Shown: positions 5,060-5,410, numbered from the stretch's first letter. The stretch is DNA of 16,731 nucleotides from a virus (IMGVR_UViG_2576861133_000011), one strand, 5' to 3'. Notes: generated by a model not told the origin, from the letters alone. A program made the numbers and translations.

Positions 5060-5189
5060 AAAAACTCCTGCCCGTAAGCTGGGCTGCTGAACATATAGAG
5101 ACTTCTGCGCGTATTCAGGCGGTGGATGGCCGCCGGTTGTCATAACTAAGCCGCCTCGTTGAAGCGACTAAGGTATGAAATGTTGAGTT

Positions 5190-5332
5190 AATTTCAGCTG
5201 GTCACACCGACGTTCACGCGTCCGTTTCACCCCTCGCACTCCCCGAAGCCTGCTGAAATTCAAACTGCGGATCTAAGCGGTCATCGCAACGGTGAATCAG
5301 GTAGTTGCCGTATCGTTGTGTTGTTGCGATGA
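5190..5332 (-). promoter_or_regulatory. Structured PL leader: two long inverted repeats between PL and the first ORF (candidate cis-acting RNA element)
   Basis: AATTTCAGC (5190-5198) pairs with GCTGAAATT (5252-5260). TCATCGCAAC (5281-5290) pairs with GTTGCGATGA (5323-5332). Both lie in the leftward transcript between the putative PL and the first ORF. No boxA-like sequence and no N gene found. Confidence 0.3.
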
Positions 5333-5335
5333 ACT

Positions 5336-5410
5336 TATTTAAAACTATAGTTGTTTTATCGTCAACAACAAAAGTTGTTTTATTGGTTGTTTTAGATATA
5401 ACTGGTTGTA
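5336..5410 (-). promoter_or_regulatory. Putative OL/PL: leftward early promoter with repressor operator half-sites
   Basis: Minus strand reads TTGACG-17 nt-TTAAAT (-35 near 5360-5365). Overlapping GTTGTT/AACAAC inverted repeats at 5350-5369 and 5364-5379, plus TGGTTGT copies at about 5385-5391 and 5403-5409, share half-sites with the OR palindrome. Confidence 0.5.

Follow-up and report, generated by a model that had tools for sequence, protein, structure and literature searches.

In phage lambda, the interval between the early-left promoter PL and the early-left genes holds the nutL site, a boxA with a boxB hairpin after it, and the gene for N, a protein of about 100 amino acids with an arginine-rich motif; the N leader is long, structured and processed by RNase III. 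The N-less lambdoid phage HK022, like HK75, HK639 and phiEt88, has put elements (putL and putR), antiterminator RNAs with two hairpin domains that let RNA polymerase pass terminators in cis unless the zinc-binding domain encoded by rpoC is mutated; putL begins at the first nucleotide (+1) of the PL transcript. Regulatory RNAs are also found with prophage genes for division inhibitors, as with DicF and dicB of the Qin prophage. In Escherichia coli K-12, the small RNA (sRNA) KilS is annotated and Northern-verified in the 5' untranslated region (5' UTR) of kilR in the Rac prophage (Bar et al., 2021; PMC8175672). To account for the passage of N-less lambdoid phages through their early terminators, specialists have speculated on put-like RNA (PMC12315714). 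Here we analyzed the PL leader of IMGVR_UViG_2576861133_000011, a stretch of 16,731 nucleotides (nt; the window) from an E. coli prophage that is lambdoid, lacks N and has immunity genes of the Rac type (cI / YdaS-cro / YdaT). On comparative sequence grounds, the leader between PL and kil, the first gene of the PL operon, appears to be an undescribed and widespread family of structured RNA belonging to the PL-kil operon.

Extent, structure and distribution of the leader

PL was read from the sequence on the minus strand at 5337-5365, with a -35 hexamer TTGACG (5365-5360), a 17-nt spacer and a -10 hexamer TTAAAT (5342-5337), and it sits among operator-like ACAAC..GTTGT repeats; promoter and operators together occupy about 5337-5420, to the right of the leader. 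A consensus promoter scan missed it because the second position of the -10 hexamer is T. The Salmonella phage UPF_BP1 has a PL/operator region nearly identical to that of the window, in which the same TTAAAT is followed, 7 nt on, by the start of putL. By homology with this junction, the PL transcript is predicted to start at about 5330 (A), so that stem-loop 1 (see below) would be 5'-terminal and the untranslated leader would measure 271 nt up to the kil ATG at 5059, in good agreement with the roughly 280 bp from PL to the first open reading frame (ORF) given in a preliminary description of the window. The Shine-Dalgarno sequence of kil, AGGAG, lies at 5065-5069. UPF_BP1 itself (locus L179, KX776161, 1463-1660) combines a window-type PL/operator sequence, …GTTGTTGACATTATTACAACCATAGTTTTAAAT…, with an HK022-type putL at +1, and the two sequences show that modules have been exchanged naturally where transcription starts.

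Both long inverted repeats reported in the preliminary description were recovered. Repeat I5 (5281-5290/5323-5332) is complementary at 10 of 10 positions with its arms 32 nt apart, and repeat I3 has a perfect 9-bp core (5190-5198/5252-5260) that extends to 11 complementary positions out of 12 (5190-5201/5249-5260). When 5060-5340 was shuffled 2000 times with dinucleotides preserved, a perfect stem of at least 10 bp with a loop of at most 60 nt appeared in 1.2% of the shuffles, and two stems of at least 9 bp in none of them (0/2000). On the minus strand, I5 yields stem-loop 1 (5281-5332), with the transcribed stem AUCGCAAC / GUUGCGAU (5330-5323 with 5290-5283); with transcription starting at about 5330, as predicted, the two outermost pairs of the 10-bp repeat (5331-5332) would be left just upstream of the transcript. 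This 52-nt hairpin carries a 32-nt C/A-rich loop predicted to be unpaired, and with pair probabilities of 0.9-0.97 it dominates the folds predicted for the window sequence. Repeat I3 yields stem-loop 2 (5190-5260, minus strand), spanning about 70-71 nt with its arms, in which a long-range helix, AAUUUCAGC(A)GG / CC(A)GCUGAAAUU, encloses a 47-nt G-rich interior holding a small GACG/CGUC hairpin (5219-5222 with 5209-5212). The kil-proximal module of the leader includes a hairpin of 16 pairs, H3 (5140-5178, minus strand), which contains an in-frame ATG at 5143, and it is followed on the same strand by two small invariant hairpins within 5070-5134, GGCGG/CCGCC (5118-5134) and GCCC/GGGC (5070-5084). 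Just 3' of these, the kil Shine-Dalgarno sequence is unpaired in the predicted folds.

Each by itself, stem-loop 1 (z -2.69) and stem-loop 2 (z -2.08) folded better than shuffled sequences, though with modest z-scores, but the entire 202 nt did not (z -0.92). Across 61 distinct E. coli leaders, a five-hairpin model had 96.6% of cells paired. The core of the stem-loop 2 helix was 100% paired with changes solely from A-U to G.U, its terminal pair 5260-5190 was lost in 47 of the 61 leaders, and in locus L220 the A.A mismatch of the helix has become U-A. Hairpin H3 had 99.9% of cells paired, and the six pairs that vary in it show wobble-compatible changes only. One predicted inner hairpin was broken in half of the leaders, and RNAalifold applied to the stem-loop 2 region favoured a competing local hairpin. 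The stems are thus non-random and compatible with the observed variation, but not proven as folds; we infer from the models that the leader RNA folds in this manner in vivo.

The leader was found in 2222 of 5426 complete E. coli genomes, usually once per genome and mostly at 95% identity or more, and the mean identity among the E. coli copies was 95%. It is joined to at least four different immunity regions. For three immunity types the junction coincides with the transcription start, and substitutions in the 5' arm of stem-loop 1 stay G.U-compatible, while in the O157:H7 type the junction lies at 5296 and the 5' arm of stem-loop 1 is replaced, leaving only a 5-bp pairing. In one such strain, E. 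coli O157:H7 G5295 (locus L086, 2400-3020), bet is broken by IS1203 and a SIR2-family gene stands beside the repressor. Mosaic junctions were located at 5330, 5296, 5180 and about 5110. The segment 5118-5180, including H3, is common to phi80 and HK225; its equivalent in phi80 lies 3' of the terminator of a gene annotated 'N', and in HK225 it lies upstream of kil. Hairpins at +1 also occur in the PL leaders of HK639 and phi80, and such 5'-terminal hairpins are a recurrent feature of PL leaders with this type of promoter, irrespective of the sequence downstream.

When IMG/VR was scanned with a motif made from the 3' arm of stem-loop 2, at least 120 stretches matched, and 80 loci were parsed from them. 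Each of these 80 loci has a single copy of the element, and a kil homologue was detected downstream of all true leader matches among them except two (L205 and L212). The leader element tracks kil and not the promoter or the terminators.

Kil homologues with 79-87% amino acid identity are also encoded by the first PL gene of N-less prophages in other genera, namely Citrobacter, Kluyvera, Enterobacter, Silvania and Pseudocitrobacter. The kil leaders of these prophages are modular, with a +1 hairpin (CGACAAC-loop-GUUGUC), a CGCCAGCCUGGCG hairpin and an optional element that we named M3. This element of about 91-92 nt, found in Citrobacter, Kluyvera and Enterobacter directly 5' of the kil Shine-Dalgarno sequence, is a previously undescribed kil-leader hairpin that was defined in this analysis. 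Its predicted fold is a 19-bp helix with one bulged A that closes a three-way junction. An alignment of 16 distinct sequences had 99.6% of its cells paired, and the changes in the stem are nearly all wobble-compatible on the kil-sense strand, with one U-A, U.G, C-G series; formal covariation statistics were weak (59/500 shuffles). Stem-loop 2 of the window resembles M3 in the order of its motifs (GCTTCG..GGTGAA..CGTGAA..CGTC..ACCAGC(T)GAA(A/G)TT(A/C)ACTCA), in its length of about 91 nt upstream of kil, and in a closing helix with an unpaired A between CC and GC, and the two align locally with a score of 39 against 19.5 +/- 3.9 for shuffles (0/1000). They differ in that the 19-bp helix of M3 is formed with a different 5' partner, and in that M3 abuts the kil Shine-Dalgarno sequence whereas the window has 130 nt more. 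Since M3 is absent from many leaders and stands behind a different upstream context in loci L161 and L169, it is best described as an optional, kil-linked cassette.

Two further RNAs were observed near kil in related loci. One, on the minus strand in L161 (1674-1771) and L099 (1288-1385), is an Hfq-binding sRNA similar to isrB (Rfam RF01386; its 38.2 bits exceed the gathering score), with weaker matches in L089, L136 and L101; in these non-E. coli relatives it is encoded downstream of kil on the opposite strand, and the window has none. A third kind of PL leader, in loci L108-L126 and L136-L148, carries about 100-230 nt upstream of kil an element of about 100 nt, ACCAAGACGCACCACGAACCACC…GGTGGAGTGATTAACGCGC, with a long-range helix and a CGAAGT(T)AGCC motif that is shared with the PL leaders of phi80 and HK639.

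Comparison with nut, put and KilS

Like the nutL/N leader of lambda, the window leader separates PL from the early-left genes. The window encodes no N-like protein, and no boxA was found in the leader at up to three mismatches, so that the absence of N and boxA noted in the preliminary description holds for the leader. It is qualified by an arginine-rich ORF in stem-loop 2 and by a boxA in the operon of the early-right promoter PR. The latter is a perfect rrn-type boxA, CGCTCTTTAACAA, at 6692-6704 on the plus strand, 13 nt after the stop codon of cro (YdaS), and nothing else in the early region resembles boxA at up to three mismatches. The RNA after it is unstructured, and a boxB hairpin was found in neither the PL nor the PR operon. 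In 49 of the related loci fetched, this 13-mer is likewise present as one copy oriented with PR. The boxA could represent a Nus-factor (anti-Rho) element or the remnant of a nutR. Alignment of the lambda PL leader and N with the window leader showed no significant DNA similarity, as 40 of 500 shuffles reached the score, and a decayed lambda N region or leader was rejected as the origin of the leader on this basis.

The arginine-rich ORF (5168-5263, minus strand; RLRGVRGVKRTRERR / MNFSRLRGVRGVKRTRERRCDQLKLTQHFIP) encodes 31 amino acids inside stem-loop 2, in the same frame as kil, and its RTRERR core recalls the arginine-rich motif of lambda N. It starts with TTG without a good ribosome-binding site. 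Its TAG stop codon is CAG in most relatives, and therefore gene callers annotate a long 'Kil' there, but the profiles of the Kil family begin at or near the 68-amino-acid protein. Loci L206 and L246 have a 2-nt deletion downstream of the ORF, alignment of the leader to its version in other genera requires indels of 1, 2, 3 and 6 nt, and the variable sites are spread evenly over the codon positions. A tblastn search with the ORF found no divergent homologues and none outside its own family. A coding leader, either as the arginine-rich ORF or as an N-terminally extended Kil, was thus rejected on account of the stop/sense polymorphism, the frame-breaking indels and the unbiased codon positions, and the comparative sequences indicate that the leader is non-coding and that the ORF is not conserved as such. 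Hence the combination of an arginine-rich ORF with boxA and boxB, which the preliminary description had named as evidence against an N-less leader element, is present only superficially, with an unconserved ORF and a boxA in the PR operon that lacks boxB.

The preliminary description had also likened the leader to the put RNAs of HK022. It shares with them an N-less lambdoid phage as host, transcription from PL +1 and two hairpin domains, and it begins at the predicted position where UPF_BP1, with a homologous PL, holds putL. However, the leader has no similarity to put in sequence or structure. A covariance model built from seven putL sequences (HK022, PDP110P2, UPF_BP1, phiEt88, CobraSix, S9-5 and HK639) scored HK022 putL with 101 bits and recovered the held-out HK022 putR with 41.9 bits (E 8e-7), yet its best match in the window was at 7405-7472 in the O gene (E 0.38), with none in the leader and none in the kil leaders of the Citrobacter/Kluyvera/Enterobacter type. 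Membership in the put family was therefore rejected. In addition, put has a copy in the PR operon, whereas the window holds no second copy of the leader and no PR-operon counterpart; between cro and the cII-like gene, where a search for a similar structure had been proposed, the spacer from cro to ydaT is unstructured (z 0.01). The leader is also longer and looser than put, with a 52-nt hairpin that has a 32-nt open loop and a domain of 71 nt; it goes with kil, and relatives can do without part of it. Together with the lack of covariation in the E. coli leaders, these comparisons leave the put analogy unsupported as family membership and weakened as a mechanism. What stands of the earlier proposal is an N-less phage with an untranslated leader in the putL slot, non-random hairpins and a structured relative of stem-loop 2.

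KilS of K-12 Rac (b4833; L097 1906-2003; NC_000913 1418405-1418502) is comparable to the window leader in being an RNA encoded ahead of a division-inhibitor gene of the KilR family, and its prophage likewise has immunity genes of the RacR/YdaS/YdaT type. It differs in having its own promoter and in ending in a strong intrinsic terminator, GGCGGCAUCAG...CUGAUGUCCGCC followed by U5, while the leader starts at PL. When all the collected kil leaders were compared with that of Rac kilR by blastn (word size 7, E up to 1), no match was obtained, and homology to KilS was rejected. On the minus strand of 5060-5340 no intrinsic terminator was found, and no U-tract follows stem-loop 1, stem-loop 2 or H3. 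The leader thus differs from KilS in this respect too, and the lack of U-tracts leaves the intrinsic terminator or attenuator of the preliminary description unsupported. A comparison of the leader with the ftsZ translation start by duplexfold returned a full-length duplex, a result that we disregarded because the method is unsuitable. Rfam, whose families include DicF, AsxR/AgvB and Lambda_thermo, gave no match in the whole window at gathering thresholds, and chance-level matches only (E of 0.9 or more) in 4800-7400 at E up to 10. A search of the literature on put-like elements, N-less lambdoids and sRNAs of this region, which did not take in King et al. (2011) on new antiterminator RNAs, turned up nothing on this leader.

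What emerges is a leader RNA that is structured, conserved and unannotated and that takes the place of nutL or putL, and one very common E. coli prophage family is shown to be without put.

Candidate functions of the leader

We tentatively favour the reading that the leader is a cis-acting structured 5' UTR that controls the stability, processing or expression of the kil-Red mRNA, while granting that this is somewhat less than an even bet. In its favour, the element is linked to kil and optional, stem-loop 1 sits at the predicted 5' end, and the PR operon has no counterpart. According to this reading, the leader would act in cis on its own mRNA after transcription initiation. Stem-loop 1 at the 5' end could shield the transcript from 5'-end-dependent decay, and the stem-loop 2 domain could be a processing or binding site, of the RNase III or protein-binding type, that would tune the amount of kil and downstream Red message; each functional step of this scheme is one that we infer. 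Protection from 5'-end-dependent decay is known for E. coli mRNAs with 5'-terminal stem-loops of the ompA type. Stem-loop 1 resembles these in beginning 0-3 nt from the predicted 5' end, although its 32-nt loop is unusually large. A precedent for a regulatory RNA in such a leader is provided by KilS in Rac kilR, and if the leader regulates kil, it would be the third leader RNA of a division inhibitor after DicF-DicB and KilS-KilR.

Several observations weigh against a cis-acting structured leader. Both stem-loops drop to a probability of 0 when the common IAI1 variant is folded at full length, and the full-length minimum-free-energy folds are inconsistent among near-identical variants. The covariation that the preliminary description had proposed to look for is absent in the 61 distinct E. 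coli leaders, with no double-sided changes and 500/500 shuffles reaching the score. Similarity to M3 is weak in the common E. coli variant (65/1000 shuffles), and the M3 covariance model (R1) misses 5185-5265, its best match in the leader (E 7.8) lying over stem-loop 1. Moreover, M3 is missing from many otherwise equivalent kil leaders, and since the O157 type does without half of stem-loop 1, neither stem-loop 1 nor M3 is essential. The stem-loop 2 helix, at 12 bp, is short for RNase III, and simple translational occlusion is not evident because the kil Shine-Dalgarno sequence is not sequestered.

Among the other explanations, the one that deserves most attention is that the leader has no dedicated function, being a mosaic linker that the exchange of modules has left behind, perhaps a degenerate N region, in which hairpins are incidental and similarity reflects recent ancestry. 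We regard this as unlikely, yet as a serious contender. The high mean identity of the E. coli copies, the lack of covariation, the four mosaic junctions and the N-like RTRERR frame are all consistent with it, but two long stems never arose together in the shuffles, a stem-loop 2 domain with a stable helix is retained in other genera, comparison with the lambda PL leader and N gave no significant DNA similarity, and the arginine-rich ORF has no homologues outside its family. Another explanation starts from the same frame: a peptide from stem-loop 2 (MNFSRLRGVRGVKRTRERR..., or a fusion to Kil where TAG is CAG) might serve as a mini-N acting with the PR boxA. The N-like RTRERR in frame with kil and the perfect boxA after cro suggested this cryptic system; against it, the ORF has a TTG start without a good ribosome-binding site, shows stop/sense polymorphism and frame-breaking indels in relatives, has no distant homologues and lies outside the Kil family models, which start at the 68-amino-acid protein, and neither operon has a boxB hairpin. 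The comparative sequences appear to have largely refuted it, and we give it very little credence. A new cis-acting antiterminator RNA, an analogue of put but unrelated to it, is also improbable. The folded leader would in that case stay with RNA polymerase and allow read-through from PL. This idea keeps some weight because there is no N, because the leader occupies the slot of nutL in lambda and of putL in UPF_BP1, and because an intrinsic terminator-like site is present in the PL operon before xis and int (2339-2357, minus strand; an 8-bp stem, AGGGAGC…GCTCCTT, then TTTTATTGTT), located between a 93-amino-acid ORF and the TraR-like gene; the site would matter only as a possible target, were the leader an antiterminator. 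The missing nut site, the two-hairpin architecture from +1 and the specialists' suspicion of put-like RNA in N-less lambdoids (PMC12315714) speak for it as well. However, the put model that recovers putR finds no credible match here, the PR slot holds a solitary boxA instead of a copy or similar structure, the element is single in each parsed locus and follows kil rather than promoter or terminators, M3 is missing from many leaders that are otherwise equivalent, and stem-loop 1 has lost its 5' arm in the O157 type. If it were true, the leader would represent a new class of polymerase-modifying RNA in the prophages of about 40% of sequenced E. coli.

Two further explanations concern the fate of the leader transcript. 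An sRNA cut from the 5' UTR, for example from the stem-loop 2 domain, could act in trans on host mRNAs beside Kil; KilS in the kilR 5' UTR and the parallel of DicF-DicB lend this some appeal, as does the compact and stable structure of stem-loop 2/M3, a discrete cassette that is present or absent in at least two leader contexts. Since no leader hairpin is followed by a terminator or U-tract, no similarity to KilS and no Rfam match including DicF were found, and no conserved single-stranded seed is obvious, we consider it rather improbable. The other explanation is a Rho-dependent attenuator, by which the long untranslated leader would stop leaky PL transcripts before the toxic kil gene; silencing of Rac kilR by Rho is reported by Cardinale et al. 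(2008). The 271 untranslated nt, the C/A-rich loop of stem-loop 1 predicted to be unpaired, and an excess of C over G in the first 78 nt (C/G 1.47) and in windows over the last 140 nt (1.2-1.56) would suit it. But a Rho-utilisation site calls for about 80 nt of C-rich, G-poor and unstructured RNA, by which standard the C/G ratios at the leader ends are modest and only mildly rut-like; G predominates in the structured central 100 nt (C/G 0.53), and the relief of termination upon induction would be left without explanation, so that we see only a slender chance for Rho here. The cis-acting 5' UTR thus stays our preferred, if tentative, reading of the leader.

Gene order and other features of the window

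Over 5050-5480 the window matches phage PhiR34_1 at 100% identity, and Bievrevirus 4A7 with its relatives at 86-87%. From the left end, the window carries int (1-1143) followed by xis, the TraR-like gene, exo (3013-3693), bet (3690-4475), gam (4481-4777) and kil (4853-5059, minus strand). The 68-amino-acid kil product, a KilR-like FtsZ inhibitor preceded by a good Shine-Dalgarno sequence, matches phrog_294 (1.8e-38) and, under the curated cutoff of that model, NCBIfam NF008465 'FtsZ inhibitor protein' (7e-17); related phages carry a kil homologue annotated as Kil. To the right of PL and its operators lie the cI terminator (5516-5533), cI (5655-6410, minus strand), the YdaS-type cro (6449-6679) and the YdaT-type gene (6749-7288). 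O and P are located between the latter and a moron in the early-right region (9252-13922), and the late regulator Q is not within the window.

The moron encodes an inverse autotransporter of 1556 amino acids with IAT_beta and Big_1/Invasin_D3 repeats, and it contains perfect tandem repeats of 153 bp (10916-11224) and 252 bp (11430-11932). A strong bidirectional terminator (13934-13954) lies 3' of it. An IS66-family element, identified by Pfam on the plus strand from 14315 to the window end at 16731, is inserted after the moron and encodes HTH_Tnp_1, TnpB_IS66 and a DDE transposase.

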